A stretch of 64,000 bases of DNA, from IMG/VR virus record IMGVR_UViG_3300025450_000013. One strand, 5' to 3'. A model generated the notes under the pieces. That model saw only the letters and a list, made by a program, of their open reading frames with translations, did no database searches and was not told the origin of the DNA. Source of the DNA: a virus. Positions 5,012 through 47,793 of the stretch are shown here, one piece after another. Position 1 is the stretch's first letter, and every line of letters begins with the position of its first letter. The translations under genes were made by a program, and so were the position numbers.

Positions 5012-5052
5012 AGTAATCCCTTTATATGGTATTTCATACTATTTAGGATTAT

Positions 5053-5658
5053 TTACCTGAACTTAGGACCTTCTACCCATATAACAATTGACTTACGAAT
5101 ACCTAAGTGTACCGGTTTCACTCTATGGATCAGAAAAGATGGAAATGCTATAATCTTACCTCTAGTCATTTCAGGTGTTCTTGCATCTTCTTCCATTCCA
5201 AGGTTTATTTGAAATTCACCCCCTGAGAAATGAACTTGTGGTTCTGATAGTAACATAACCAAAGTTAATTTTCTGACAGAATCGGTACAATCATTATCAC
5301 CTAATACCGTATCCATATGCCAGTCATACATTCCTTTATTCAAAGAATCATAAACAGTGTATTGAAAATCTTTATAACCATAAAGGTCAAATCCAAAATA
5401 AGTTGAATTTATTCTATCAATCACACCGTTAAATTTATCAAAAATCCAATAATTCTCTTCATTTCTGCTGATAAATTTTACCTTAGATTTTCTATGCTGT
5501 TCACAATCTTCACCTTTACCGACTGTTGTGGATCTATGTAATTCTTCTTTTTGACATAATTTTTCAATGTCATTCAATTCATTTTCAACAAATAAATTTT
5601 CCCACAAAATATAACTAGGTATATTTTTTCTAAAATTCACAGGATCATTTGAAATCAT
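5053..5658 (-). CDS. 2OG-Fe(II) oxygenase (prolyl-4-hydroxylase/PKHD-like)
   Basis: YDWHMD (HxD), RKLT, FPSFLIHRVKPV..G.RKSIVIW; start chosen at ATG 5658, which overlaps the upstream stop (TAATG). Confidence 0.9.
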   Translation of the reverse strand: MISNDPVNFRKNIPSYILWENLFVENELNDIEKLCQKEELHRSTTVGKGEDCEQHRKSKVKFISRNEENYWIFDKFNGVIDRINSTYFGFDLYGYKDFQYTVYDSLNKGMYDWHMDTVLGDNDCTDSVRKLTLVMLLSEPQVHFSGGEFQINLGMEEDARTPEMTRGKIIAFPSFLIHRVKPVHLGIRKSIVIWVEGPKFR

Positions 5659-6119
5659 TATGTATTGGCCACCACCATTTTGTTTGATATCATGTAATTT
5701 ATTACGTTGTTTACCACATTTGGCATACATTTATTTGCCACATCATTAATTTCATCAAGTTGTGTTTTAAGTATTAGATTGTTAGCATCATTTGCTGAAT
5801 AACTATTTACATTGTATAAAAATGTATTAACATTTGTAAAATTAACAACTGTATTAACTTTTGGTGTAATAGCCCAAAAAGGAGTTGCTGATTGTATAAG
5901 ATTTAAAATATCATTAGATGAAGTATTTGCAGTATCATATATTGTTAAATTTGTGTCGGTAGAACAATGAATAGGATAACCATTACTGGTTAACATAATA
6001 TCCCCACGAACATCAATGGAGGTTGATAGTGTATTTTCAGAAACCTTATCACTCCAATATCTAACAGTAAATGTATTTTCCTCTGGGAAAACATCTATAA
6101 TTCTAAAAAATACGTTCAT
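5658..6119 (-). CDS. Hypothetical protein, possible adhesin assembly/accessory factor
   Basis: 153-aa ORF between the Gly-rich adhesin and the oxygenase, translationally coupled to the latter. Confidence 0.55.
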   Translation of the reverse strand: MNVFFRIIDVFPEENTFTVRYWSDKVSENTLSTSIDVRGDIMLTSNGYPIHCSTDTNLTIYDTANTSSNDILNLIQSATPFWAITPKVNTVVNFTNVNTFLYNVNSYSANDANNLILKTQLDEINDVANKCMPNVVNNVINYMISNKMVVANT

Positions 6120-6129
6120 TTTATCCCCT

Positions 6130-7878
6130 TTAGACCTTAGGTCCGTTGATTGTACCCATATTTATATACTTAATATTTGAGTTACCACATATTGCGGATC
6201 CTTGAGTACCTGGTGAACCTGATGCTCCCGAAGATCCTGGTGAACCTGGTGATCCTTGAGAACCGGCATTTCCTGGATGCCCTGTTGCTCCTGGTGAACC
6301 GGCATTTCCTGGTTGACCTGATGGCCCAGAATTTCCTGCTGATCCTGGGGATCCAGCATTTCCTGGTTGACCTGAATGCCCGGCCCCACCTGTTGATCCG
6401 GCTGAACCGGCTGGACCAGGTTGACCAGAATGACCAGCTGGTCCTCCACCACCACCGCCTCCTGGATATCCTGGTTGATTTAAGTCACCGCCTCCACCAC
6501 CACCATTTGGACCGGATCTACCAAAATGATGGCTGCATCCGTGATGGTTAGCAGGTTGATGACTTGCTCCGTGATAACATCCTGAAGCGTGGTGCCCATT
6601 ATATCCACAATGGGCACAATTTACTTGGCCAGCACCTTGATGATTTGCGCTATAATGTGCTGCTGGTTGGTGCTGACCCCATCCACCACCTTGATGAGAA
6701 TGACCGGGAGGTCCATGAGGACCACCACAAGCACTACCGCCTGGGCCTGGAGGTATACCTGCACCACCTCCACCGCCGCCTCTATGACCGGAAGCTCCGC
6801 CGCCGCCGCCTCCAGGTCCTCCTGGTCCAGAATTTCCACCTGAACCACCTGGTCCGGCACTTCCTCCAGAACCACCTGGTCCTGCATTTCCACCTGAACC
6901 ACCTGATCCAGCATAACCGCCTACGCCACCAGGTCCGGCATTTCCACCTGAACCACCTGGACCTCCCGGACCCGCAGCTCCACCTGGTCCTCCAGATCCA
7001 CCAGGACCAGATGATCCTCCAGAACCTCCTGGACCAGATGATCCTCCACTTATTGTTGATGTATTGTTGAGAATTATACTAACACCATATACGGCACATG
7101 CTTTAAGTGATACACCACCAGGTTGCCCGGTGCCTCCTGTACCACCAGGTTGCCCGGTGCCTCCTGCACCTCCTGGTTGACCACATCCACCTCGGACACC
7201 TGAACCTCCCGGTTGACCACAACCACCTAGGCCGCCTGAACCTCCTGGTTGGCCTGCACCTCCTGGTTGACCACAACCACCTCGGCCACCTGGTTGACCA
7301 TAACCACCTGGTTGACCGTGACCACCTGTACCTCCTGTGCCTCCTGGAGTACCGCCTCCACCATGGTGGCCTCCACCGAACCATCCGGGTCCGTGACCTC
7401 CACCACCACCAGCACCAAATGCACCTGTACCACCTGGTTGACCGTGTGCTCCTGTGTATCCTGGTTGACCGTGTGCTCCTGTACCACCTGGGTTACCGTG
7501 ACGACCTGCTCCACCTGGTTGACCGTGTGACCCTGTACCACCTGGTGTACCTACAGATCCTGAACTACCTGTAGCACCTGGATTTCCTGTAGAACCTACA
7601 GATCCTGGAGCACCTGGTGTGCCTGTAGCACCTGTAGTACCAGCTGCACCTGCTATGGTTGCTGAATTTTTAATATAAATTAGAGTACCTGGCCTCCAAC
7701 TGGAACCTGTCTGTAAAGCAGGTGTTGAAGTTGAGGTACTTCCTATGTTAGCATTGATAAAAACAAATATATTACCAGGGTAGGATGGGCTACCTGATTG
7801 ATTGTAGAGATTAACATTATTAGTCGCGGAACTAATATTAATAATTTTTGTTGGTCTGGTAATAGGAAACAAGAACAT
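6130..7878 (-). CDS. gp38-like glycine-rich adhesin with greatly extended polyglycine-II segments and His/Cys-rich loop
   Basis: gp38-like spacers (INANIGSTSTSTPALQTG..IYIKNSATIAG; IILNNTSTISGG; GGGGAGIP; C-terminal GSAICGNSNIKYINMGTINGPKV) separated by four long Gly-triplet runs. Confidence 0.7.
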   Translation of the reverse strand: MFLFPITRPTKIINISSATNNVNLYNQSGSPSYPGNIFVFINANIGSTSTSTPALQTGSSWRPGTLIYIKNSATIAGAAGTTGATGTPGAPGSVGSTGNPGATGSSGSVGTPGGTGSHGQPGGAGRHGNPGGTGAHGQPGYTGAHGQPGGTGAFGAGGGGGHGPGWFGGGHHGGGGTPGGTGGTGGHGQPGGYGQPGGRGGCGQPGGAGQPGGSGGLGGCGQPGGSGVRGGCGQPGGAGGTGQPGGTGGTGQPGGVSLKACAVYGVSIILNNTSTISGGSSGPGGSGGSSGPGGSGGPGGAAGPGGPGGSGGNAGPGGVGGYAGSGGSGGNAGPGGSGGSAGPGGSGGNSGPGGPGGGGGGASGHRGGGGGGAGIPPGPGGSACGGPHGPPGHSHQGGGWGQHQPAAHYSANHQGAGQVNCAHCGYNGHHASGCYHGASHQPANHHGCSHHFGRSGPNGGGGGGDLNQPGYPGGGGGGGPAGHSGQPGPAGSAGSTGGAGHSGQPGNAGSPGSAGNSGPSGQPGNAGSPGATGHPGNAGSQGSPGSPGSSGASGSPGTQGSAICGNSNIKYINMGTINGPKV

Positions 7879-7933
7879 TAATTACACCTTATGAGCATAT
7901 ACTATATACTATTTAGTTACTATGGAGTTTGCT

Positions 7934-9103
7934 ATGAAAATTGGTCTTATAGGTGATCATATTACCGATATTTATATATATGGGAAAATGACTAGGTTTT
8001 CACCGGAGTCTCCTATTCCTATCTTTGACATAGAGAGAGAAGAAAGTCGTTCTGGCGGTGCTTCCAATGTCAATAACAATCTAATGGCCCTTGGTGCTTC
8101 TGTTGATTACCACTGTGACAAAATAAACTATTCTATCAAAAAACGATATGTCTGTGACGGCCACATAATGTTCCGTGTGGATGCCGATAAGACCAGCACC
8201 GTTGATCCATGTCTTGCCGAATTTACCGAAGAAACCAAGTATGTCATCCTTTCCGACTATGGTAAGGGTATTTTGACATATAGTTCTGAAGTTATTGATA
8301 AACTGAAGCAAGATGGTAAGATCGTCATTGTTGATCCTAAAAGGCATATCAGTCATTATGAAGGTGCTGATATTGTCAAGATGAATGAGAAAGAATATTA
8401 TCAGTTCTGCCCACAGGGAAAAGGTGCTTTAAAGTATTATGATATAGGAACTTTTGTGATAACCTTGGGTGGCAAAGGTGTTAGAATTATTAATGAAAAT
8501 GGTGATACAACAATTCCAGGTCTAGGATTACAAGTATCTGATGTGACAGGCGCCGGTGATGTGTTCATTGCTGCTATGACATACTACCTAGCAAAAGGTA
8601 AAGACATATATCAGGCCTGTGATATTGCGAACAAGTATGCGGCTAAGTCCGTAACCAAGTTTGGTACCTATACAATTACCGAAGATGATAAAAGAGAGAT
8701 TGAAGGTAAGATAGTATTCACCAACGGTTGCTTTGATATTCTACACCGTGGCCACATTGAATATCTACAAAAGTCTAAAAAATTAGGAACTAAGTTAATT
8801 GTAGCTTTAAACTCAGATGAATCAGTTGCTAGACTAAAAGGCACTGTCAGACCACACAATAAGCAGGAAGATCGTAAGAGAGTATTAGAGGCTCTTGATT
8901 GTGTTGATGAGGTTATTATCTTTAATGGTGACACACCATATGAAATAATTAAAGATTTGAAGCCTGACATTATAACAAAAGGTGGTGATTATAAGACTAA
9001 AGAAGAAGTGGTCGGGCATGATCTTGCTGAGGTCGTTATATTACCTTTTGTTGATGGATATTCTACTACTAAAACATTGGAGTATATGAATGGAGATTGT
9101 TGA
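7934..9103 (+). CDS. hldE: Bifunctional heptose-7-phosphate kinase / heptose-1-phosphate adenylyltransferase
   Basis: PfkB kinase (RFSPESPIP, SGGASNV, LSDYGKG, DVTGAGD) fused to nucleotidyltransferase (FTNGCFDILHRGH, NSDESV.RLKG..RP, KGGDY, FVDGYSTT); RBS GGAG before ATG 7934. Confidence 0.92.
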   Translation: MKIGLIGDHITDIYIYGKMTRFSPESPIPIFDIEREESRSGGASNVNNNLMALGASVDYHCDKINYSIKKRYVCDGHIMFRVDADKTSTVDPCLAEFTEETKYVILSDYGKGILTYSSEVIDKLKQDGKIVIVDPKRHISHYEGADIVKMNEKEYYQFCPQGKGALKYYDIGTFVITLGGKGVRIINENGDTTIPGLGLQVSDVTGAGDVFIAAMTYYLAKGKDIYQACDIANKYAAKSVTKFGTYTITEDDKREIEGKIVFTNGCFDILHRGHIEYLQKSKKLGTKLIVALNSDESVARLKGTVRPHNKQEDRKRVLEALDCVDEVIIFNGDTPYEIIKDLKPDIITKGGDYKTKEEVVGHDLAEVVILPFVDGYSTTKTLEYMNGDC

Positions 9104-9440
9104 GAAGAAATGGGGTAGAGAGATAATCTTTGCCAATAATGATAAGTATTGTGGTAAACTTCTTATACATGATAAATCCGGTTCTAAAGGTTCTATGCAT
9201 TTCCATATGAAGAAACATGAGACCTTTTATGTCCAGAAAGGTATATTCAAGATACACTGGATTGAAACCAATGATGCAAAGATACATAATACTATCCTTA
9301 GAGAAGGTGATACATGGGTCAATGAACCTGGGCAACCGCATCAGATTGAGGCTTTAGAGGACAACTCAACTATAATCGAGGTATCTACAACACACTTTGA
9401 CAATGACAGTTATAGAGTTATGCCAGGAGACGGTCAATGA
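9090..9440 (+). CDS. Cupin protein (sugar-phosphate isomerase-like)
   Basis: KKWGREI..YCGKLL..SMHFHMKKHETFYV..PHQI..IIEVST..DSYRV cupin motifs. Confidence 0.8.
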   Translation: MEIVEKKWGREIIFANNDKYCGKLLIHDKSGSKGSMHFHMKKHETFYVQKGIFKIHWIETNDAKIHNTILREGDTWVNEPGQPHQIEALEDNSTIIEVSTTHFDNDSYRVMPGDGQ

Positions 9441-9739
9441 AGTATATAATGGATATCGACGGAACAATCTGTACCAATACTAATGGTGATTATGAGAAGG
9501 CAACTCCTTATCTAGACCGCATAGATTATATCAATCACCTATATGATAAAGGGCATGAGATACATTACTGGACGGCCAGAGGTGGTAACTCAAGGAGAGA
9601 TTTATCAGAACTAACCAAAAAACAATTAAAAGAATGGGGATGCAAATACACCTCACTAAGATGTGATAAACCAGCATATGATTACTGGATAGATGACAAG
9701 GCATTTAATGATAGAGATTTCTTTGGAGTTAATTTATGA
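9437..9739 (+). CDS. Small HAD-family phosphatase (candidate GmhB substitute)
   Basis: DIDGT motif I, WTARG motif II, KP..DYWIDDKA motifs III/IV. Confidence 0.8.
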   Translation: MKYIMDIDGTICTNTNGDYEKATPYLDRIDYINHLYDKGHEIHYWTARGGNSRRDLSELTKKQLKEWGCKYTSLRCDKPAYDYWIDDKAFNDRDFFGVNL

Positions 9740-10527
9740 TATTGATAACTGGTCATAAAGGATTTATCGGTCAAAACCTTGTTAATAGATTAAATGATAA
9801 ACTCTTTTGCCTTTCTGATATTGACAGTTGCTTCAAAGACCTTTATTTAACACCTTGGGAAGATATAGAAGAAATATGGCATATGGGTGCCATCTCTGAT
9901 ACTACTTGTACCGATTTAAATAAAATCCATACTTATAACATAGAATATACCATAAATCTATTTGAACTTGCTATTCAATATAAGATACCAGTAAAGTATG
10001 CCTCGTCCGCGTCCGTGTATGGAAACACTAACTATCGTAGAGAGATTAATCCACTAAACTTCTATGCTATGTCTAAGGCTACTATTGATCGTTGGGTAAT
10101 GGATAATTTATACAAGTTTGAATCTATACAAGGTTATCGTTTCTATAATGTATATGGTAAGCATGAAGACCATAAAGGTGGCCAGGCCAGTCCGATACAT
10201 ACATTCATCAAGCAGGCAAAAGAAACAGGAACGATTAAACTATTTGAAAACTCGGTTGCCTATATGAGAGACTTTATTTGGGTTGAAGATGTTATAAATT
10301 GTATGCTGTATGATAAACCAAGTGGTATATATGATCTAGGAACTGGAGTAGCAAGGTCGTTTGAAAGAGTGGCTGAAATCATAGCAGACAGATATAATGC
10401 CAAGTTAGAGTATGTTCCATTTCCAAAACACCTTGAAGACAAGTATCAATACTTCACTTGTTCATTAAATCACTTTGATCATACATTCACATCAATAGAG
10501 GAATATGTTAATGAAAGAGGAGTATAA
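9736..10527 (+). CDS. hldD: ADP-L-glycero-D-manno-heptose 6-epimerase
   Basis: TGHKGFIG, HMGAISDTT, YASSASVYG, PLNFYAMSK, RFYNVYG..E.HKG..AS, RDFIWVED, KYQYFT. Confidence 0.9.
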   Translation: MILITGHKGFIGQNLVNRLNDKLFCLSDIDSCFKDLYLTPWEDIEEIWHMGAISDTTCTDLNKIHTYNIEYTINLFELAIQYKIPVKYASSASVYGNTNYRREINPLNFYAMSKATIDRWVMDNLYKFESIQGYRFYNVYGKHEDHKGGQASPIHTFIKQAKETGTIKLFENSVAYMRDFIWVEDVINCMLYDKPSGIYDLGTGVARSFERVAEIIADRYNAKLEYVPFPKHLEDKYQYFTCSLNHFDHTFTSIEEYVNERGV

Positions 10528-11122
10528 AGAGATTGCACCTGGCTGGTTATGGCAGTCTAATGTCACTAGTGATCTTATGAAATATGATGAGAACTATGTA
10601 AAACCATACACTAAGTATGATGATACTCTCTCATATATTAGACTCAACTTTTGTCAAAAGTATGCCAAGTTTTATTCGGTTCTTGATGTTGGATATGGCG
10701 ACGGTAACTTTCTCAAAGTATGTAATCGTGAAGGATACAAATGTTTTGGTAATGATATATCAGGATATTCTTTATCAGACGGAATAACTTTTACTGAAAA
10801 TAGAAATATACCTGTTGACCTTGTTACGTTCTTTGATTGTATTGAACACTTTCCACAAGAAAATGTTGAAGAGGTATTAAAAGAACTAAATTGTAAGTAT
10901 ATCTGCATTTCGATTCCTTGGTGTCATTTTGATAATTTTGAAATATGGAAACACCGCAAGCCTAATGAACATTTCCATCATTTTGGTGTTAGAGGTGTTA
11001 CTGAGTTATTGAATAGAGGTGGGTTTGATTTGATTGTTTCTGCTTCAATTGAAGATCAAGTTAGGTCAAACAAAGGCGGAATACCAAATATTTTAACTGT
11101 TATTGGAAAGAAAAGATGTTAA
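10511..11122 (+). CDS. Class I SAM-dependent methyltransferase
   Basis: VLDVGYGDG, VTFFDCIEHF, KPNEHFHHF. Confidence 0.8.
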   Translation: MKEEYKEIAPGWLWQSNVTSDLMKYDENYVKPYTKYDDTLSYIRLNFCQKYAKFYSVLDVGYGDGNFLKVCNREGYKCFGNDISGYSLSDGITFTENRNIPVDLVTFFDCIEHFPQENVEEVLKELNCKYICISIPWCHFDNFEIWKHRKPNEHFHHFGVRGVTELLNRGGFDLIVSASIEDQVRSNKGGIPNILTVIGKKRC

Positions 11123-11796
11123 ATTTATATTATTCGCATAGGACAGATGTTGAAAAAGCATACATTATTACAATAAAGGGTAATAATATGTCCGAAAAAT
11201 ATTCAAAAAGATGTCAAGAATCGTGTAAAAATGTTGGTATGCAATATCAAGTATGGGACGCATTTGATGGAACTGGTGATGAAATAATAATACCAGAACA
11301 CTCTAAGAATAATCCCATTTTTAAAATGGTGAAAATACAAGATCATCATATGACAAAAAGTGAACTTAGTTGTTTTCTTAGTCATTTAAGTTTATGGGCT
11401 AGATGTGTCGAGATAGACCAACCAATAGTTATACTTGAACATGATGCTATAATGGTAAAAAAGTTTGAAAATAAAACTAGTTATAATTCTATTGTATATC
11501 TTGGTTGTGAAATATGGGCAAAAAAAGGATCTAATATAGAAGATATTCCAATATATGGATCTGGTGGAATGAATAATCTTTATATATATAAAGGACATGC
11601 ATATTGTATAGATCCACAAGTTGCTAAGAATATGTTATCAGATGTTTTTAAGCGTGGTATATGGACAATTGCAGATAGATTTATGAAAGCAGATTTATAT
11701 AACATAACTCATCAAGGATTATATGCTTTTGAAAATAAATTTAACGATGAAGATTCTACTATAGTTCCAAGAGAGAAAGATGAATATACATGTTAG
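11116..11796 (+). CDS. Glycosyltransferase family 25-like
   Basis: ELSCFLSHLSLW..C......VILEHDA, GHAYCIDP.VAK. Confidence 0.8.
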   Translation: MLNLYYSHRTDVEKAYIITIKGNNMSEKYSKRCQESCKNVGMQYQVWDAFDGTGDEIIIPEHSKNNPIFKMVKIQDHHMTKSELSCFLSHLSLWARCVEIDQPIVILEHDAIMVKKFENKTSYNSIVYLGCEIWAKKGSNIEDIPIYGSGGMNNLYIYKGHAYCIDPQVAKNMLSDVFKRGIWTIADRFMKADLYNITHQGLYAFENKFNDEDSTIVPREKDEYTC

Positions 11797-12626
11797 ATGA
11801 AAATATGCAAAATTATTTAAGTCATATGTTTGACATGGTTAGTGATTTAAGAGACTTAAAGTTATATGAAAGAACCAATACATCTAAGAATCCTTTAAAT
11901 CATTATGGTCGTAGGGCTTTCAGTCAGTCAGACGAAGATGGTATTACACAAGAGATTATGAAACGTATAGGAGTTGATAATGGAGTTTTTGCTGAATTTG
12001 GAGTAGGATCAGGTTTAGAATGTAATACATTATTGTTAGCTGGATTAGGTTGGTCAGGGTTTTGGGTTGACGCTGGAAACATATTACCTAAAATTGAACA
12101 ATCTGCAAATCCAAAATTTTCATTTTTTAAACGTCATATAACATTAAATAACGTATTAGAAACATACTTACAGTGTTTGAAATATATTAATAAAGAAGAA
12201 ACAGATTTTATTTCTTTTGATTTTGAAGGTAATGATTATTATTTAATTGAGAGATTATTGCAATCTGGAGTATCTCCTAAAGTATTCGTAGTTGAATATA
12301 ACGCTAAATTTATACCACCCATTGAATGGAAAGTTAAATATCATGAAAATCTAATATGGGAATATGATGATTATTTTGGTGCTTCTCTTATGTCATATGT
12401 TAAATTGTTTGAAAAACATAATTATTTTCTTGCATGTTGTAATAGTTTTACAGGAGCAAATGCTTTCTTTATTAAAAACAAATATAAAGAATTTTTTAGT
12501 GATATTCCAAAATCAATCAATGATATTTGGGTTGAGCCTAGATATTATATTACTAAAAAGTATGGTCATAAGAGTTCTGTTAGGACTGTAGAATTGTTGC
12601 TTAATAATTTAAACTCTTGTCAATAA
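11790..12626 (+). CDS. FkbM-like methyltransferase
   Basis: FSQSDEDGI, FAEFGVG.G.ECNT, GW.G.WVD, SFDFEGNDY, VVEYNA, GANAFF. Confidence 0.7.
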   Translation: MLDENMQNYLSHMFDMVSDLRDLKLYERTNTSKNPLNHYGRRAFSQSDEDGITQEIMKRIGVDNGVFAEFGVGSGLECNTLLLAGLGWSGFWVDAGNILPKIEQSANPKFSFFKRHITLNNVLETYLQCLKYINKEETDFISFDFEGNDYYLIERLLQSGVSPKVFVVEYNAKFIPPIEWKVKYHENLIWEYDDYFGASLMSYVKLFEKHNYFLACCNSFTGANAFFIKNKYKEFFSDIPKSINDIWVEPRYYITKKYGHKSSVRTVELLLNNLNSCQ

Positions 12627-13827
12627 CAGATATCCAATCACCCATCTTCTGTTGACGCCAAACAGTAACATCAGGAAACCAATCTGATTTACCTCCGTTT
12701 TCGGCAGCACACCAAGTAAAATAACCAACCACAATATCATAAAGATATGTTTTAATACCTAATGCGCCAGCAGCGACCGAAACGCTTGAACTACTGGTAT
12801 AACACATTTTACACAAGCTAAGAATAGCAAGCGTATCATCCCAATCTTTTATATCTTTTGTTAAATCAATTACGCCTTCTGGACATGTTTCTGCTCCCAT
12901 ACAAACAGAAATTAGTGTTCCTTGGTGCTTAATCTTATCAATAAGGTATTCAATTGGTATTGTTCTCAGATCATTTTCTGAGTGTTCTTTATCACCCGTC
13001 CAATTTAAAGCAATTAAATTGTCATACATTTTAAGTTTTTGTTTCCACTTTGCTAGATAAACTGGATTAGGTTCTAAATATTTTTCATTACCAGGTTTTT
13101 CTACTTTCAAATTAAATGGTAAACTCATAGAAGGTACCCAATAATCATATTTGATTGTTGGATCTACTGGAAAAACTTTAAAGTTTCTTGATATAACATT
13201 CTTTAAACTATTATCAGTGTAGTAATATACAAAAGCACCCATGTCTTTTAACATAGGAATCCATCTACTGAATATCATTTCGTCGCCAAGCCCAGCTTCT
13301 CCTATGACGCATATTTTAGATCCTTTAATATTTTGATAACCAAACCATCTATCTACATTTGGAGGAGGAAGTTTTTCATTAGTCCAAAACGCACCATTTC
13401 TTCCAATCTCCGTTTCAATAAACGCTTCTTTAAATTTACCCTTTCTGTGTAAAAACCATCCTATATCTAAGTGTTTATCCTCACATTCTATTTGATTGTT
13501 TTTGATATACTCGTAACCTTCGTCATATCTACCAAGTCTAGTTAGATATTGAGCGTATTGCCTTATATCCGTTTTATCTTTAGATTTAGTTATATCCATG
13601 TATTCTTGAAATAGTTCTAAAGATTTGTCAATTTCACAAAGATTGTAATGACAAATTGCTGAATTTTTAAGAACATCAGGATGTCTATATTCTAATAAAT
13701 CTAATGTTAGTAGATTCTGATTAATAGACTCCCGAAACATTTTTTTATTATAATATTCTATTGATAATGATTCGGAAGCCTCAACAGATTTATTTATTTG
13801 AAAAGTATTCATCAATCGCTCTATCAA
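12601..13827 (-). CDS. TPR + GT-B (GT9/heptosyltransferase-like) glycosyltransferase
   Basis: N-terminal TPR-like helices; EAGLGDEMIFSRW, DYWVPSMSLP, IALNWTG, WDDTLAIL, TSSSSVSVAAGALG, WFPDVTVWRQ. Confidence 0.75.
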   Translation of the reverse strand: MIERLMNTFQINKSVEASESLSIEYYNKKMFRESINQNLLTLDLLEYRHPDVLKNSAICHYNLCEIDKSLELFQEYMDITKSKDKTDIRQYAQYLTRLGRYDEGYEYIKNNQIECEDKHLDIGWFLHRKGKFKEAFIETEIGRNGAFWTNEKLPPPNVDRWFGYQNIKGSKICVIGEAGLGDEMIFSRWIPMLKDMGAFVYYYTDNSLKNVISRNFKVFPVDPTIKYDYWVPSMSLPFNLKVEKPGNEKYLEPNPVYLAKWKQKLKMYDNLIALNWTGDKEHSENDLRTIPIEYLIDKIKHQGTLISVCMGAETCPEGVIDLTKDIKDWDDTLAILSLCKMCYTSSSSVSVAAGALGIKTYLYDIVVGYFTWCAAENGGKSDWFPDVTVWRQQKMGDWISVIDKSLNY

Positions 13828-15508
13828 TATCTACTTGACTATATCTCGGCGGTTTGTGAACCTGAACCAATATTTTAGTCAAAGCAGCAACATTATTATA
13901 ATTATTAAGAGAGAAAGAAACATCCTCTTGTGTAGCTTTGTTTTTTTCAAACATTTCTAACCAATTCGTATTGTAGATATATTCAACTAAACAAACCTCT
14001 ATATCTATATTATTTTGAAGACATAGAATTGCTTCTGAAGGAGCTTTAGAGAATTTATCCATACAAAATTTCATATCAAACATTTTAAATGTGTCTGGAT
14101 GAATTAATCTTTTATGTGTCGGATCAATCAAAGCCAAATCACTACGATGATGTGGAACTTGAATTTCCCAAATTGCACCATGTTTACTGATTCTATACAT
14201 TTCCTTAATGACATTAACTGTATCATCAAGATGTTCAATTATATCTTTAGCGACAATGTGATCGTATTCACCATCAGGAATGTCCCAATTTTTAGAATTG
14301 AGATCCACAATTCTATCTGGTCTTACTATTGGAGAATAATCAACATTATCATAACCTTTCACTTTATCAAAACCACAACCAAGGTTTATCTTTTTACATT
14401 CTTTATCACAGCTTGGTAGGTCGATGTGTTTTAAATTAAACTCATTTTCAAGATCTTGATACATTTCCTGAAACACATCATTCCATTTTGTTGGATTAGT
14501 TTGCCTATAAACCCTAACAGATTTATAAAATGGTGAAGTTTTTGATTCTGGAGCACCAAGAGTCCATGTGTGATAAGGGAGCGTTGGTGTGAATACCCAA
14601 GTCTCTTTACCAAGAGCAGCTGCCGCATGAGCGATACTTGTGCAAGAGGTTATAATAAGATCCAATTGTGATAATGCAGAAAGAGTGTCTTCCCATGAAA
14701 TTAATAGATATTGAAGATCAGTTATATTTTCAGGAAGAATTTGTAGATTATGATCTCTCTGTAGGCTATAGATATCCAAATCTTCATGTTTAGCAAGGTT
14801 TATCATAAACTCTGGAGGAAATCTACGAAACTGTTGATGTTCAAATTTTGGATTACCAGACCATCTAATTCCAACTTTTTTCTTTCCATTATTTTTAATA
14901 ATGGAAGACCAAACTTCATAAGAAGAAGGTATCGGAGATAGATATGGTTCATTTGGTAAATTATCATATGTATGACCTAAAACCCAACCAGCACTGAAAC
15001 CCGGAATCCAGTAATCATGTTGGACCGTATGTGATTGGTCTCTCTGAATAACACCATCTACGCCAGGAACTCTTGTGAAAATTGAAGCAATTTCAGGAGC
15101 AGCTGCTAAATAAACCTTATTGGCTCCTAATTTTTTTGCAGTTTGTGCAAAACGAGAATGAATAATTTCATCGCCATAACCACCTTCAAGAGAGATGATA
15201 ATAGATTTTCCTTTAATATCATGTTCTTCTGGATTGTATATTGGTGCAGAAGTTTGTAGATGACCACTACCGTAGACGTTAATGAATCTACCAGATTCTA
15301 AAAGTTGAGAACCTTCACGATAATTTCCTTGCTGTAAAAGAAACCAACCTCTGTTGAAATTATGTCTAAGCCACATCTCAGGATTTTTATTTCCTTGCGG
15401 GTCAAGAATATTATCTTTACCCAAAGCCTGTAATTTTTCAGATATTTTCCAACCTTCTTCAAACTCACCCTTTAACATATGCTCAAGTTGCAAATCAATA
15501 TCATGCAT
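13790..15508 (-). CDS. GT9-like glycosyltransferase fused to C-terminal SAM methyltransferase
   Basis: EGGYGDEIIHSRF, VGIRWSGNP, ITSCTSIAHAAAALGK, SPFYKSVRVYRQ; then INLGCG..KGYDNVD, IIEHL, DPTH. Confidence 0.78.
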   Translation of the reverse strand: MHDIDLQLEHMLKGEFEEGWKISEKLQALGKDNILDPQGNKNPEMWLRHNFNRGWFLLQQGNYREGSQLLESGRFINVYGSGHLQTSAPIYNPEEHDIKGKSIIISLEGGYGDEIIHSRFAQTAKKLGANKVYLAAAPEIASIFTRVPGVDGVIQRDQSHTVQHDYWIPGFSAGWVLGHTYDNLPNEPYLSPIPSSYEVWSSIIKNNGKKKVGIRWSGNPKFEHQQFRRFPPEFMINLAKHEDLDIYSLQRDHNLQILPENITDLQYLLISWEDTLSALSQLDLIITSCTSIAHAAAALGKETWVFTPTLPYHTWTLGAPESKTSPFYKSVRVYRQTNPTKWNDVFQEMYQDLENEFNLKHIDLPSCDKECKKINLGCGFDKVKGYDNVDYSPIVRPDRIVDLNSKNWDIPDGEYDHIVAKDIIEHLDDTVNVIKEMYRISKHGAIWEIQVPHHRSDLALIDPTHKRLIHPDTFKMFDMKFCMDKFSKAPSEAILCLQNNIDIEVCLVEYIYNTNWLEMFEKNKATQEDVSFSLNNYNNVAALTKILVQVHKPPRYSQVDIDRAIDEYFSNK

Positions 15509-15546
15509 AAATATTTACTCCTTCATAATTATCATTTAATGTAATA

Positions 15547-15554
15547 TATTTATA
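15547..15554 (-). promoter_or_regulatory. T4-type late promoter TATAAATA for the glycosyltransferase pair
   Basis: Exact TATAAATA upstream of RBS GAAGGAG and ATG 15508. Confidence 0.7.
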
Positions 15555-15562
15555 AAATATAT

Positions 15563-18500
15563 TTATCTTGTCAATCCAACTGCTGTAAAACTGAAACTAG
15601 CGGATACAGCCGCCCAACTACTGCTTCCCAATTGCGTAGGAGAAAAGACGTTTCCTGAAATAGTTCCATTACCTAATTCTCCATAACCAGAACTATTATA
15701 ACCCCATACAAATAAAGCACTGTCGGATCTTATACCATAGCTAGAATATTGACTAGCATAAACAGCTGTCCAACTACTATTTCCTATTTTTGTAGGTGAT
15801 GTTATGGTACTTCCTCTTGCTGGATTTCCAGTGTAAGCTGCTCCACCAGTATATAGTGCGCCATTGTTACCAATTGCGGCAGCAGTTGAACCACCGTTGC
15901 AGTTTGGTATAAAGCTAAACCCTGTACCAATTTGTGTTGGAGAACTGAGAATAAAAGTTGATGTATCGGTTCCTCCCAAATAATTAGATCCACTAGATGC
16001 ATTAAGACCAGTACCAAATAAAACACCATCTATTCTTAACATCCAACTAGAATAATCTCCACTACTGCCGTTTTGGATACAAACAGCAGTCCACGAACTT
16101 GTTCCAATTTGAACAGGTGATGAATAGGAGGTGAGATTACCAGTACCTAAATATCCATATCCCCAGTAAGCTTGATATCCCCATCCCCATAATGTACCAT
16201 CTAATTTAATTCCTAAAGAACCGAAGCCACCACAAGAAACAGCTTTCCATGAACTTGTTCCAATTTGAACAGGTGATGAATATGTAGTAGCATTGTTGGT
16301 TCCTAGAGTGTTATAAAAATTATAACCCCATCCCCATAATGTCCCGTCTGCTCTAATTGCAAGCGCACAACTACTTCCAACAGACACTAATGTCCAAGAA
16401 CTAGTTCCAACCTGAACAGGTGATGAATAAAATGCAGTTGCAGTATTAACACCCAATGCTCCAGATGCATTGTAACCCCATGAAAATAGGCTTCCTCCGC
16501 TTCTAATTCCTGCGGATTGATTAACACCTGTGGATATTGAAGTCCAACTACTAGTACCTACTTGGACAGGAGAAGATACATATGTATATTGTGCTATATT
16601 CTGACCAAGTTCTCCACCTGCATTGTAACCCCAAGACCATAAAGTATTATCCGCTCTTATTGCTAAAACATGACAATAACCAACGGATACTGATTTCCAA
16701 CTACTAGTACCTACTTGAACAGGAGAATAATATGATAAATTGTTATTCTGTCCTAATTGCCCGTATGCTCCGTTACCCCATCCAAACAAAGCACCATCGT
16801 TTCTGATAGCAAAATTTGCATATAGTCCTAAACTAATTGCTGACCAACTGTTAGTTCCAAGTTGAGCCAAAGATCCAGTAACATCAGTTGCTAGAGCACC
16901 ATAAGTACTTGTACCCCATGCCCATAAAGAACCATCAGTAGTTACGCCAAGCACATGCGCATGGCCTAATGACACAGCATTCCATGAACTTGTTCCAATC
17001 TGGACTGGAGATGAAGTTGCTGTAGTGTTTCCATTACCAAGTTGATAAAAAACATTATATCCCCATGCCCATAATGTCCCATCTGCTCTAATTGCTACTG
17101 TTGTTCCGCTAACATTATTACCATTTAATCCTAAAACTTTCCAACTATTTGTTCCTACTTGAACTGGAGTTTGAACTACTAAAGTACTGTTTAATCCTAG
17201 CGAACCGTTTGTGTTGGATCCCCACATAAAAAGACCACCATCTGATCTAATTGCACCAACATGAGAAGCACCAGCCGCAACAGAAGTCCAACTACTTTTT
17301 GATATTTGGTATGGAGCGTCCGAAAATGCCTGTCCTGATATAAGAGTAGTATAACCCCAAGACCATAAAGTATTATCCGAACTTATTGCTAAAGCTGTGC
17401 TATGTCCTATAGAAACAGCTTTCCATGAACTTGTTCCAATCTGGACTGGAGAGTTTATTGTAGTAGGTATAATTCTTCCAACTGTAATCGTATTACCACC
17501 ATAACCACCCCAAGTATAAAGAGCTCCTAAAGAATCAATAACTCCACCACCACAAAAATTATCAGTATTACCTGAACCACCTCCAGTTGGAAGCACAGAC
17601 CAGCTGGAGGTTCCTATTTGTACTGGAGAAGATATAGAAAAAATACCAGCACCACCGCCTACCGCTGAGTTGATAGCGCAAGTTTGAAACAACAATCCAT
17701 CAGTTCTTAGAAGTAAACTAGAATAACCACCAAGAACTGATACAGCTTTCCACGAACTTGTTCCGATTTGAACAGGTGATGAATATGTAGTAGCATTATT
17801 AGTACCTAACTGACCGTATGTATTGGTTCCCCACGCAAACAAAGCACCATCAGATCTGATGGCCATCACTGTTGATAAAGAAACACTCACAGATGTCCAA
17901 CTACTTGTTCCGATTTGAACAGGTGATGATTGAGTCGTTATGCTATTAGTACCTAAAGTTCCAGTACCGCCGTATCCCCAAGTAAATAAAGCACCATCAG
18001 ATCTGATAGCTGAAGAAACCCAAAAACTGGCTGAAATAGCTTTCCATGAACTTGTTCCAATTTGCGAAAATGATCCCCTATTAACCAAATCATTGGTACC
18101 TAACTGACCGTATGTTGCTTGTGCTCCAGTGGCAAACAAACCACCATCAGATCTGATAGCCATTGTATATGAATAACCACAAGAGACAGCTGTCCAACTA
18201 CTGAAACCAATTTGAGATAATGTTTGAATTGTAGTTCCTGCTGGAGATCCCAATTGAGCGCCAACTCCCCATGTAAATAAAGATCCAGTAGAATTTATTG
18301 CTCCTGCAATAGCACTATTTCTAAAATCTCCTATAACATATACACCTGCTGGCTGACTGAAATTTCCTGTTGAAATTTGTACAGGAGAGGATTGATTAGT
18401 ACTAGTTCCAGTACCAACTGTATAAGAAATGTTGGCACCCCAACCCCATAAACTAAAATCACCAGCCCTCACCGCAAAAAGTGCGTTATCATAATTACTT

Positions 18501-19852
18501 CCGGTATTACTTAATCCGATAGCCACCCAGCTACTTGCTCCAACCTGAACAGGTGATGATTGATTCGTTGTGTTATTATTACCTAATTCACCAGCTGAAC
18601 CATAACCCCAAGTCCATACTGTATTATCTGCTCTTAATGCTATTGCACTATTAAAACCAGACATTATAGCTTTCCATGAACTTGTTCCAACCTGAACAGG
18701 CGATGAATATGAAGTAGTATTATTTGTTCCGAGAGTAGGATAAAAACTTTGGCTTCCCCAAGCAAATAAAGCACCGTCTACCCTGATCGCATGCCCATAA
18801 GTTCCACCAGTATTATCCCCAACACTTGCCATTACCCAACTACTTGTTCCAACATGAGTTGGTAATGTAACGTATGATGAATTTGTTGGTGTATAAGTAG
18901 TATAACCCCAAAAAAATAAAGCACCAGTTGTTGTTATACCGACGGTTGTTGAACTAGCGGCTGCTATACTCGACCAACTACTTGTTCCAATCTGGACTGG
19001 AGATGAATAGTTAGTATTAACACCATTACCAAGCTGCCATACGTTATTATTACCCCATGCCCACAGTGTTCCGTCTGATCTAATTGCGTATGTTTGTAAT
19101 GTTCCACAAGAAACAGCTTTCCATGAACTTGATCCAATTTGAATAGGGGATGCATACGTTAAAGTGTTATTAACACCTAACTGACCGCTACTACCAATAC
19201 CCCATCCCCATAAAGAACCATCTGATCTTATTGCCATTGTATGACTAGTGCCAGAAGATACTGATTTCCAACTTAAATTTCCTATCTGTGTTGGTGTGTA
19301 ACCAGCATTTAAACCTAACTGACCGGAATTGTTATTACCACATCCCCACAAAGTATTATCTGATGCAATTGCACAGGCATGAGAGTCACCTCCGGAAACA
19401 GCTTTAAAACTCATTCCGACTCCAATTTGAATTGGAGATGAAGTTGATGTAGTGTTTCCATTACCAAATTGGTAATAAGTATTAAAACCCCATGCCCACA
19501 GTGTTCCGTCAGTTTTTATTCCATAACCAGTTGATGAACCGATAGAAACAGCTGTCCAGCTTGTGGAACCAGGAGAAGGAGCCTTTGTTGCTATAAAAAG
19601 TAAACCTTGACCTAAAGTGTAATTGTTAGTGGCACCCCATGTGAACAAAGCACCATCAGATCTAATTGCCGCTGTAACGTTTAATCCTGCACTGACTACA
19701 GACCAACTACTTGTTCCAATTAAAACAGGCGATGAATAGCTAGTAGTAGTTCCATAACCAATAGTTCCTGATGTTCCACGACCCCAGGTAAATAGATTTT
19801 TTTTAGTAGAACCTCCAGAACTTGATTTTAATAATAGTTCATGTAATAGCAT
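15563..19852 (-). CDS. RCC1/BLIP-II repeat multi-propeller protein (putative adhesin)
   Basis: Roughly 27 repeats of ~52 aa: AIRSDGALFAWG.N..GQLG.......SSPVQIGTSSW..VS.G. Confidence 0.88.
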   Translation of the reverse strand: MLLHELLLKSSSGGSTKKNLFTWGRGTSGTIGYGTTTSYSSPVLIGTSSWSVVSAGLNVTAAIRSDGALFTWGATNNYTLGQGLLFIATKAPSPGSTSWTAVSIGSSTGYGIKTDGTLWAWGFNTYYQFGNGNTTSTSSPIQIGVGMSFKAVSGGDSHACAIASDNTLWGCGNNNSGQLGLNAGYTPTQIGNLSWKSVSSGTSHTMAIRSDGSLWGWGIGSSGQLGVNNTLTYASPIQIGSSSWKAVSCGTLQTYAIRSDGTLWAWGNNNVWQLGNGVNTNYSSPVQIGTSSWSSIAAASSTTVGITTTGALFFWGYTTYTPTNSSYVTLPTHVGTSSWVMASVGDNTGGTYGHAIRVDGALFAWGSQSFYPTLGTNNTTSYSSPVQVGTSSWKAIMSGFNSAIALRADNTVWTWGYGSAGELGNNNTTNQSSPVQVGASSWVAIGLSNTGSNYDNALFAVRAGDFSLWGWGANISYTVGTGTSTNQSSPVQISTGNFSQPAGVYVIGDFRNSAIAGAINSTGSLFTWGVGAQLGSPAGTTIQTLSQIGFSSWTAVSCGYSYTMAIRSDGGLFATGAQATYGQLGTNDLVNRGSFSQIGTSSWKAISASFWVSSAIRSDGALFTWGYGGTGTLGTNSITTQSSPVQIGTSSWTSVSVSLSTVMAIRSDGALFAWGTNTYGQLGTNNATTYSSPVQIGTSSWKAVSVLGGYSSLLLRTDGLLFQTCAINSAVGGGAGIFSISSPVQIGTSSWSVLPTGGGSGNTDNFCGGGVIDSLGALYTWGGYGGNTITVGRIIPTTINSPVQIGTSSWKAVSIGHSTALAISSDNTLWSWGYTTLISGQAFSDAPYQISKSSWTSVAAGASHVGAIRSDGGLFMWGSNTNGSLGLNSTLVVQTPVQVGTNSWKVLGLNGNNVSGTTVAIRADGTLWAWGYNVFYQLGNGNTTATSSPVQIGTSSWNAVSLGHAHVLGVTTDGSLWAWGTSTYGALATDVTGSLAQLGTNSWSAISLGLYANFAIRNDGALFGWGNGAYGQLGQNNNLSYYSPVQVGTSSWKSVSVGYCHVLAIRADNTLWSWGYNAGGELGQNIAQYTYVSSPVQVGTSSWTSISTGVNQSAGIRSGGSLFSWGYNASGALGVNTATAFYSSPVQVGTSSWTLVSVGSSCALAIRADGTLWGWGYNFYNTLGTNNATTYSSPVQIGTSSWKAVSCGGFGSLGIKLDGTLWGWGYQAYWGYGYLGTGNLTSYSSPVQIGTSSWTAVCIQNGSSGDYSSWMLRIDGVLFGTGLNASSGSNYLGGTDTSTFILSSPTQIGTGFSFIPNCNGGSTAAAIGNNGALYTGGAAYTGNPARGSTITSPTKIGNSSWTAVYASQYSSYGIRSDSALFVWGYNSSGYGELGNGTISGNVFSPTQLGSSSWAAVSASFSFTAVGLTR

Positions 19853-19861
19853 AATTGACCT

Positions 19862-20356
19862 TTATTGCGGAGGAGTTGGCCAGCTAACACTATTAGTTGC
19901 TGGAGGAAATTCAGTTGGACCGAAAGTGAAAGATGCTGGAAAATCTCTCAATTGTTGTCTATAAGTTTGCCATTCTGTGAACCAAGTATCATTTTTCATT
20001 TTTAAAATATCAGCAGCCATAGTCCAATCGCTCTCAAATAATTTTCCATCTCTTTCCAATCTAATCTGCCTTAAAAACATTTGTTGAGTGATTAATGGAT
20101 CTTCTTTTTGTATTGTATTTAGTGTATAATTAGATGTTACTTTTTCACCATCAAACGAAAATGTTGGAGTATTTAAAGTGTAAATTGTTGAGTCGTAATC
20201 GGGAACATCGTCTATGACAATATACCAACCAAAAGTAAGTAAAGTTTCTGGGTCATCACCAATTAAATTGAATCCGCTTACATTTCTCCAATTCATTGGT
20301 AATGCATAATGGATTTCTTTAATTTCATTATCTTCTATAAAAGCATATATTGTCAT
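19862..20356 (-). CDS. Tail fibre assembly chaperone-like protein
   Basis: C-terminal IRLERDGKL.ESDWT...W.TYRQQLRDFP......WPTPP motif. Confidence 0.8.
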   Translation of the reverse strand: MTIYAFIEDNEIKEIHYALPMNWRNVSGFNLIGDDPETLLTFGWYIVIDDVPDYDSTIYTLNTPTFSFDGEKVTSNYTLNTIQKEDPLITQQMFLRQIRLERDGKLFESDWTMAADILKMKNDTWFTEWQTYRQQLRDFPASFTFGPTEFPPATNSVSWPTPPQ

Positions 20357-21200: not shown

Positions 21201-21231
21201 ATATTTGTTCCATTTTCCTTGTTATTTAGGT

Positions 21232-47764: not shown

Positions 47765-47793
47765 GGAAGTCCCTTAATGTTTCCTTATTTAGC

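Follow-up and report, generated by a model that had tools for sequence, protein, structure and literature searches.

A putative cytoplasmic kit for sugar decoration of fibre-region proteins, encoded beside an RCC1-propeller gene in a T4-like virus of cyanophage type

The described systems closest to the gene cluster reported here, which lies at positions 5,053 to 19,852 of a 64,000-nucleotide stretch of viral DNA (IMG/VR record IMGVR_UViG_3300025450_000013; the whole stretch is called the window below), include both lipopolysaccharide (LPS) enzymes and enzymes that modify proteins. WaaC and WaaF (CAZy family GT9) are encoded among LPS genes. In the TibC/TibA and AAH/AIDA-I systems, a soluble cytoplasmic enzyme with a GT9-related GT-B fold is encoded beside a large, repetitive, Ser/Thr-rich adhesin. 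FlmG and OGT are cytoplasmic, protein-acting enzymes that combine an N-terminal tetratricopeptide repeat (TPR) array with a C-terminal GT-B domain, and the TPR part of FlmG, the flagellin O-glycosyltransferase of Caulobacter crescentus, binds flagellins (PMC7591256). Heptose cassettes are found in the cyanophages P-SSM2, S-SSM7, S-CAM1, P-TIM68 and SynMITS9220M01, and clusters of this type have been annotated as 'LPS genes' (PMC1079782, PMC3037559, PMC7378029). Published ideas on their role are host-surface alteration or LPS remodelling and 'stuffer DNA', with no tested function since 2005 (PMC1079782, PMC3037559).

The source of the window is a T4-like myovirus of cyanophage type, and a divergent one. 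Compared with known phages at the nucleotide level it shows only islands of 70-77% identity, in structural genes of Synechococcus phages (Kyanoviridae), and the cluster itself had no match in a nucleotide search of 50,697 phage records. Two transferases of GT9 fold sit just downstream of a gene for an RCC1-propeller protein, in the neck/fibre region, and converge with a plus-strand sugar operon. We put at about even the chance that these genes form a soluble cytoplasmic kit, which, ahead of assembly, attaches a modified sugar to the phage's own fibre-region proteins, chiefly the RCC1-propeller protein. A heptose set and transferases lying among fibre genes, with a near-constant RCC1 partner, point to a virus that probably sugar-coats its own attachment proteins. 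Heptose cassettes as such are already known as cyanophage annotations; new are the RCC1/GT9-like pairing, the fold assignment and the virion-decoration reading, none of which we found described in the literature.

Virion glycosylation is known from other viruses, including the capsid and tail of mycobacteriophages, the capsid glycans of chlorovirus PBCV-1 and the collagen hydroxylase/glycosyltransferase of mimivirus. In those cases, as proposed here, virus transferases encoded near structural genes modify proteins of the virus's own particle, but the enzyme families, sugars and hosts are different, and we know of no heptose-based or GT9-based case. An earlier annotation of the same DNA, made from its letters and open reading frames (the sequence-only reading), had proposed heptosylation of the phage fibres, and all the genes that it named were found where it had placed them. 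The transferases and their partner are the following.

15563..19852, minus strand: RCC1 repeats end to end, about four propellers, 1429 aa (Pfam WD40_RLD/RCC1)
13790..15508, minus strand: GT9-fold transferase (residues 1-350) fused to a class I methyltransferase (residues ~370-480), 572 aa (profiles, hhalign)
12601..13827, minus strand: TPR domain (residues 1-145) and GT9-fold domain (residues 164-408), 408 aa (model, TPR profiles, fold match); the start is likely ATG 13812, giving 403 aa

The association of the two kinds of gene was examined from both sides. One set of loci was seeded with the transferase and comprises the best 80 loci of 196 viral contigs encoding a relative; the other comprises 79 loci found with an independent seed, the RCC1 propeller. 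An RCC1 gene is present in 69 of the 80 transferase-seeded loci, within 1 kb in 62 and on the same strand in 68, and nine of the 11 loci lacking one come from contigs that end at that side. In the opposite direction, 62 of the 79 RCC1-seeded loci carry a GT9-like gene at a distance of 6 kb or less, and in 13 of the other 17 the contig breaks off within 1 kb of the RCC1 gene. Co-occurrence with adhesin genes in related phages, which the sequence-only reading had suggested checking, is therefore found, and the GT9-like and RCC1 genes form a near-obligate pair in both search directions. The pairing withstands rearrangement, with the RCC1 gene upstream of the transferase in 50 loci and downstream of it in 16; RCC1 proteins share only 30-45% identity. 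Among isolates (the same 50,697 records), the phages of cyano type that carry an RCC1 gene are exactly the carriers of the transferase, namely BUCT-ZZ01, S-SRM01 and the marine single-cell virus AG-345-E08. Comparative genomics thus supports a tie between the transferases and the RCC1 protein, not membrane or LPS machinery.

We regard the RCC1 protein as a candidate acceptor, or partner, of the two transferases. It has very low charge and contains 26.8% Ser+Thr, which counts for an acceptor role. A pair made up of an adhesin gene and its dedicated transferase is reminiscent of TibA and TibC. It would differ in shape from the acceptor of TibC, which is a β-helix and not a β-propeller.

No membrane segments were predicted in any of the cluster proteins, and no flippase, polymerase, ligase or lipid-carrier enzyme or transferase was found among them; without these, cytoplasmic glycosylation of a soluble acceptor fits the design. 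The region is flanked by neck/sheath-stabiliser genes (gp14-like, gp15-like) and tail-fibre genes (Pfam), and the block thus lies inside the virion gene region, as had been claimed. In the nearest relatives of the transferase pair (L004-L010) the order is RCC1, GT9-methyltransferase, TPR-GT9 and neck genes, so that, compared with these, the window carries block 5053-12626 as an insertion.

The two minus-strand transferases, each convergent with the operon, are paralogues with 29% identity over 300 aa. Searches of the PDB by sequence, with a transferase or a family profile, returned TPR proteins only, and fold comparison was therefore needed. The AlphaFold model of the 408-aa protein has a mean confidence (pLDDT) of 93.3. 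Its TPR domain, which had been predicted earlier, is real, with eight helices in residues 2-143 and TPR profile matches. The top non-TPR structural matches of its GT-B domain are all GT9 proteins (3tov, Z 17.4; WaaF, 16.4; TibC, 16.2; WaaC, 15.5). Superposition with VIA-align on 3tov, WaaF and WaaC covered 217-229 residues with a root-mean-square deviation (rmsd) of 2.5-3.1, and superposition on TibC aligned 232 residues with an rmsd of 2.8. OGT-type chains are also among the top Foldseek matches because of the common TPR plus GT-B design. For the catalytic domain, however, GT9 aligns best, whereas the GT41 enzyme Thermobaculum OGT gave a Z of 11.8 and an rmsd of 11.2.

A Gly-Asp motif is invariant in all 22 sequences compared, with the Asp at position 182 of the 408-aa protein. 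In a structural alignment of model residues 170-408 on WaaC residues 1-318, D182 falls on WaaC position 13, and Asp13 is presumably the catalytic base of WaaC. The C-terminal signature of GT9, D(T/S)GxxH, also has a counterpart: hhalign places the viral TSCTSxAH on VDTGLSH of WaaC, and the signature His is kept in the GT9-methyltransferase paralogue. The viral domain thus resembles WaaC and WaaF in fold (Z 15.5-16.4), in the Asp13 equivalent and in the aligned signature, but it is ~80-100 residues shorter, carries TPR or methyltransferase fusions and has Cys in place of Asp261. Its genomic partner is a fibre-region protein, in contrast to the LPS neighbours of WaaC and WaaF. The proposed comparison with GT9 and TibC structures hence confirmed the GT9 fold, but the viral transferase is no nearer to TibC, whose Z of 16.2 is level with those of WaaF and 3tov, than to WaaC/WaaF. 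Moreover, TibC has neither a TPR domain nor a fused methyltransferase, and each viral transferase has one or the other, the claimed methyltransferase fusion being that of the 572-aa paralogue. The TPR plus GT-B design is that of FlmG and OGT and counts for decoration of proteins, although FlmG transfers pseudaminic acid and OGT N-acetylglucosamine, unlike the proposed viral sugar. FlmG was absent from the named matches of the family searches.

Distant relatives connect the family with GT9 through intermediates, since three of them pass the Pfam GT9 model PF01075 (cut-off 22) with 58.8 (P0085), 40.5 (P0150) and 30.3 bits (P0101); another, P0024, has a canonical VDTCIAH. The GT9-methyltransferase fusion is 65-76% identical across more than 120 metagenome clusters, and an exhaustive search yielded 26,683 related clusters (at 50% identity). 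Some family members are fused to FkbM methyltransferases or to sulfotransferases. Many members are giant proteins that combine several domain copies with TPRs; they include proteins of 1,200-3,100 aa (among P0031-P0179), in which three to six tandem copies of the domain are separated by TPR arrays.

The seven plus-strand genes at 7922-12626 overlap successively by 14, 4, 4, 23, 7 and 7 nucleotides (nt), and the translationally coupled operon described earlier is present with its seven named genes.

7922..9103, plus strand: HldE-type heptose-7-phosphate kinase/heptose-1-phosphate adenylyltransferase, fused, compact, 393 aa (PfkB and CTP_transf_like; phrog_7878)
9090..9440, plus strand: metal-type cupin, 116 aa, with a complete HxH...E...H metal site (model pLDDT 92.7)
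9437..9739, plus strand: minimal HAD phosphatase, 100 aa, DIDxT (phrog_1238, E 5e-28; motifs present in homologues)
9736..10527, plus strand: HldD-type ADP-heptose 6-epimerase, compact short-chain dehydrogenase/reductase, 263 aa (TIGR02197, 215 bits against a cut-off of 274.6)
10505..11122, plus strand: class I S-adenosylmethionine-dependent methyltransferase (Methyltransf_23, E 3.7e-11; phrog_6564)
11116..11796, plus strand: GT25-family (GT-A) glycosyltransferase (PF01755, E 2.9e-16)
11790..12626, plus strand: FkbM-like methyltransferase, 278 aa, a lead only (ESM Atlas features 0.97-0.98)

Both HldE domains are there. The top NCBIfam match of the protein is HldE (291.7 bits, below the cut-off of 521), and the models of rfaE domains I and II are also among its top matches, again below cut-off. 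The HldD-type epimerase shares 35% identity with E. coli RfaD over the full length (E 9e-47) and keeps GxxGxxG and YxxSK. Because the NCBIfam matches of both proteins are the best ones but lie under the curated cut-offs, these are compact, divergent versions. The minimal HAD protein, with weak NCBIfam matches to capsule phosphatase and HAD-IIIA models, is by its motifs a candidate GmhB analogue. The heptose set named by the sequence-only reading is thus upheld for HldE and HldD, while its GmhB would be this 100-aa HAD protein, and GmhA is not in the cluster. For the FkbM-like protein, a Pfam search gave no match and its structure has template-modelling (TM) scores of 0.83-0.85 to ESM Atlas clusters named FkbM.

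The cupin has WbuC cupin as its top NCBIfam match, and its fold is closest to the C-terminal cupin of CapF (Z 16.1), which we take to be a sugar C3-epimerase, followed by phosphomannose isomerase (14.4) and lyxose isomerase (13.7). Judged from the model, a role as a CapF/WbuC-like sugar epimerase is no less likely than one as a ketol isomerase in place of GmhA. It was not accepted as a clear GmhA substitute, the isomerases being about 2 Z units under the CapF cupin. The epimerase-like fold and the lack of GmhA in the cluster suggest that the product may be a tailored heptose and not the LPS-type L,D-heptose. A cupin and a minimal HAD protein always accompany phage heptose cassettes, where databases name them 'cysteine dioxygenase' and 'phosphoheptose isomerase'; both names (the second is that of phrog_1238 in PHROGs) look wrong.

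The cyanophage cassettes listed above hold the same set of kinase, adenylyltransferase, cupin, HAD protein and epimerase, at 31-51% identity. In contrast to them, the cassette of the window has the kinase and adenylyltransferase fused, adjoins the RCC1/TPR-GT9 pair and carries methyltransferases in place of their carbamoyltransferase. With these genes a supply of ADP-heptose would be available, as in the TibC and AAH systems. Of the 80 transferase-seeded loci, 14 have hldE at a distance of 1.3-3.6 kb from the GT9-like gene; where both flanks extend for 8 kb or more, the count is 7 of 13. Overall, heptose genes accompany the pair in roughly a third to a half of the long-flanked loci. GT25 homologues adjoin the GT9-like/RCC1 pair in 16 of the 80 loci, often directly before hldE. 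In the distant AG-345-E08, three RCC1 genes, an oxygenase, a GT9-like gene, GT25 and the whole heptose cassette lie on one strand.

A scan of viral contigs with the single hldE sequence found three close loci only. In the two with the closest relatives, L089 and L090 (68% identity), the operon is at the same place, beside neck genes, and the HAD protein is larger (223-225 aa). Their convergent slot, directly after fibre genes, is taken by a different GT9-type gene of 308-311 aa and a carbamoyltransferase. This small gene, with the motif GCDSVGQHMA, is located as follows.

L089, 10931-11857, minus strand: small GT9-type gene
L090, 14714-15649, minus strand: small GT9-type gene
S-CAM1 (NC_020837.1), 180260-181399: small GT9-type gene

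The 308-aa protein scores 21.2 bits with PF01075, against the cut-off of 22. The gene lies 2-7 kb from hldE in S-CAM1, S-CAM3, S-SSM7, Sf-FS3 and three marine single-cell viruses, and in S-CAM1 the heptose cassette is placed between tail-fibre genes. In no locus examined do the small and the TPR/methyltransferase-type GT9 genes occur together.

Two late-promoter-like sites bear on the time of expression.

15547..15554, minus strand: TATAAATA, late-promoter-like, 39 nt before ATG 15508 (motif scan)
7910..7916, minus strand: CTAAATA, late-promoter-like, 38 nt (motif start) upstream of the collagen-like gene (motif scan)

The first had been correctly placed by the sequence-only reading, and ATG 15508 is preceded by a GAAGGAG ribosome-binding site. 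In the window TATAAATA occurs 12 times, against 11.1 expected by chance; 11 of these sites are on the strand of the structural genes, and one copy lies 46 nt upstream of a 153-aa gene (5658..6119). CTAAATA is depleted (9 copies, 20 expected), and four of its five minus-strand copies stand 22-38 nt before gene starts (5040-5046, 7910-7916, 21223-21229 and 47786-47792); judged from this placement, it is probably a second late-promoter variant beside TATAAATA. Taken together, (A/C)TAAATA is found ahead of 13 minus-strand gene heads, those of the transferase pair and of the collagen-like gene among them, but ahead of no gene of the seven-gene sugar operon. The presence of late-type motifs before the transferase pair and structural heads, and not the sugar genes, counts for late timing.

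In the pathway that we propose, the plus-strand operon, without a late-type motif, would make activated heptose by means of the HldE kinase and adenylyltransferase and the minimal HAD phosphatase, and the HldD-type epimerase, possibly together with the cupin, would tailor the sugar. The GT9-fold paralogues would be made late in infection, together with structural genes. The TPR domain of one paralogue would bind the protein substrate, as in FlmG and OGT, and the GT9-methyltransferase fusion, which retains more of the catalytic signature, would transfer the sugar to Ser/Thr. GT25 may add further sugars, and capping of the glycan would fall to the three methyltransferases. Of the two paralogues, the GT9-methyltransferase more probably carries out catalysis; its TPR counterpart may serve as an adaptor, or have an altered specificity and act jointly with it.

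Several observations weigh against this pathway. Neither transferase of the window matched PF01075 at E ≤ 0.01 (two of 22 orthologues match, at E 0.031), and Cys replaces Asp261, which together with His266 we take to bind the sugar in WaaC. In the clade of the TPR paralogue (the window and P0004-P0011), SSSSVSV replaces SCSSVAH, so that Cys and His are lost and the Gly-Asp motif is kept. The earlier label of GT9-like transferases is therefore a fair one at the level of fold and motif (Z 15.5-17.4), but the Pfam score and the incomplete signature fall short of strict GT9 membership. On the side of the donor, ADP-heptose is suggested for the pair by gene adjacency only. No GmhA (SIS domain) was found among the cluster proteins with Pfam or NCBIfam, and no SIS-type GmhA stands beside the phage heptose cassettes in any locus examined; heptose synthesis may thus need the host or an unproven role of the cupin. 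Most loci have no heptose genes within 10 kb, and BUCT-ZZ01, whose genome is complete, lacks hldE although it carries RCC1 and GT9-methyltransferase genes; different phages may therefore use different donors. In P-TIM68 and S-T4 the cassette is beside hli genes and has no GT9-like gene less than 9 kb away. As to timing, TATAAATA was rejected as a conserved promoter of the transferases, as it occurs in none of 64 distinct upstream regions of homologues (NATAAATA occurs in three), and the timing argument hence comes from this window. Finally, it is the position of its gene only that makes the RCC1 protein a presumed virion component, and we infer a glycosylated virion from the genes. For the claim that the phage modifies its own fibres rather than LPS, the transferase-RCC1 pairing and the lack of membrane machinery hold up, whereas the adjacency-based donor and the missing hldE of BUCT-ZZ01 leave its heptose part less secure.

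A different product, which we regard as rather unlikely, would be a host envelope glycan (LPS core, exopolysaccharide or surface glycoprotein) made or changed by the cluster in the course of infection, which might, for instance, prevent superinfection or the sticking of progeny to lysed cells. GT9 and GT25 are classically LPS-core families, late-type motifs were not found at the sugar operon, the P-TIM68 and S-T4 cassettes are among hli and auxiliary genes and not fibre genes, and the published reading of such clusters is that of LPS genes (PMC1079782, PMC3037559, PMC7378029). However, remodelling of the host surface leaves the two-way transferase/RCC1 pairing unexplained, the cluster lacks any membrane protein, flippase, ligase or lipid-carrier transferase, a TPR domain is a sign of a protein partner, and fibre genes surround the cassette in S-CAM1 and L089/L090. 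The LPS of marine Synechococcus is also reportedly free of heptose and Kdo, which we count against a role in the host envelope.

It is also improbable, in our estimate, that the GT9-like and RCC1 proteins cooperate in some other way than as enzyme and virion substrate: the RCC1 proteins might be lectins or partners without a structural role, or the transferases, above all the TPR paralogue with its degraded signature, might help the propeller fibres to fold or assemble, with the heptose operon as a neighbour that serves another transferase such as GT25. This would agree with the loss of the signature Cys and His in the TPR paralogue clade, with a pair lacking hldE in a complete genome (BUCT-ZZ01) and with GT25, which is translationally coupled to the heptose genes here and often directly precedes hldE elsewhere. 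On the other hand, the Gly-Asp catalytic motif is invariant in the family, the GT9-methyltransferase keeps its His and is 65-76% conserved in more than 120 clusters, indicating enzymatic constraint, and the fusions to methyl- and sulfotransferases fit glycan chemistry. Transfer of heptose to a modified base of the phage DNA is very improbable: phage clusters have been reported that combine a HAD-kinase with a cytidylyltransferase and a GT-B enzyme and make heptosyl-5-hydroxymethylcytosine (bioRxiv 10.1101/2023.12.21.572611) and a 2-oxoglutarate (2OG) oxygenase is nearby, but the transferases match GT9 and not the T4 β-glucosyltransferase type, the oxygenase is of the prolyl-hydroxylase type (PF13640) and not TET/JBP, no hydroxymethylase or cytosine methyltransferase was seen in the cluster, and the RCC1 pairing would be unexplained.

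Returning to decoration of the phage's own proteins, we tentatively suggest that TPR/GT9-like proteins and hypervariable RCC1 proteins could constitute a widespread phage glycosylation system, found in hundreds of contigs of aquatic myoviruses, in which the phages' own receptor-binding propellers would be O-heptosylated and methyl-capped, and that the long-puzzling cyanophage 'LPS genes' and many 2OG oxygenases might serve virion decoration rather than the host surface or metabolism. If so, abundant aquatic phages would depend for host range and adsorption on a glycan layer that the fibre gene sequence does not reveal, and protein heptosylation, known so far from only a few adhesins of enterobacteria, would turn out to be widespread among viruses. 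The very large uncharacterised TPR-GT9-like family (the 26,683 clusters) would also gain its first functional handle. Culturable carriers exist (BUCT-ZZ01, S-SRM01 and S-CAM1), which makes the hypothesis directly testable; in the literature, no virion proteome of S-SRM01 is reported and BUCT-ZZ01 is mentioned in one review only.

RCC1 genes are arranged differently in some isolates. In S-SRM01 (L084, NC_070963.1 222328-235158), the distal long-tail-fibre gene is immediately followed by three single-propeller RCC1 genes, interleaved with a TPR-GT9-like gene, a 2OG oxygenase, a sulfotransferase, a β-1,4-glycosyltransferase and a sugar epimerase. RCC1-domain proteins without a detectable GT9-like gene are encoded by the Clostridioides phages LIBA2945, LIBA6276 and ES-S-0173-01, the sole such set of isolates.

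The remaining genes of the region are the following.

19862..20356, minus strand: tail-fibre assembly chaperone-like protein, directly upstream of the RCC1 gene (PF16778, E 3e-13; tail-fibre assembly PHROGs)
6130..7878, minus strand: collagen-like Gly-rich protein, 582 aa (Pfam Collagen, E 3e-12; weak tail-fibre PHROGs)
5658..6119, minus strand: function-unassigned protein, 153 aa, between the collagen-like gene and the oxygenase (no Pfam or PHROG match)
5053..5730, minus strand: 2OG-Fe(II) oxygenase, prolyl-hydroxylase-like, HxD...H...R (PF13640, E 8.3e-12; phrog_61 positions 437-631); the start is likely ATG 5658, overlapping the stop of the upstream open reading frame

The 582-aa protein contains 37% Gly, with Gly-X-Y runs, Pro mostly at Y and a His/Cys-rich middle, and is probably a fibre component. 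It had been called a gp38-like adhesin, an identity that we do not retain, as Pfam gives Collagen only, with no gp38 match. The oxygenase is encoded two genes downstream of this protein with Pro at the Y position, an arrangement that suggests hydroxylation of the fibre. As conserved partners in the module, the collagen-like gene and the oxygenase were both rejected, each being present in one of the 80 loci; beyond these loci, the oxygenase also occurs in S-SRM01 and AG-345-E08.

In S-CAM9 (L085, NC_031922.1 33251-36254), a tail-fibre gene is followed by two 2OG oxygenases of the prolyl-hydroxylase type and then by a 613-aa fusion of GT25 with a glycosyltransferase domain of the PLOD type (collagen lysyl hydroxylase). 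PHROG family 61 covers both a GT25 part and an oxygenase part. From its domains, the S-CAM9 set looks like a collagen-modification toolkit beside the fibres.

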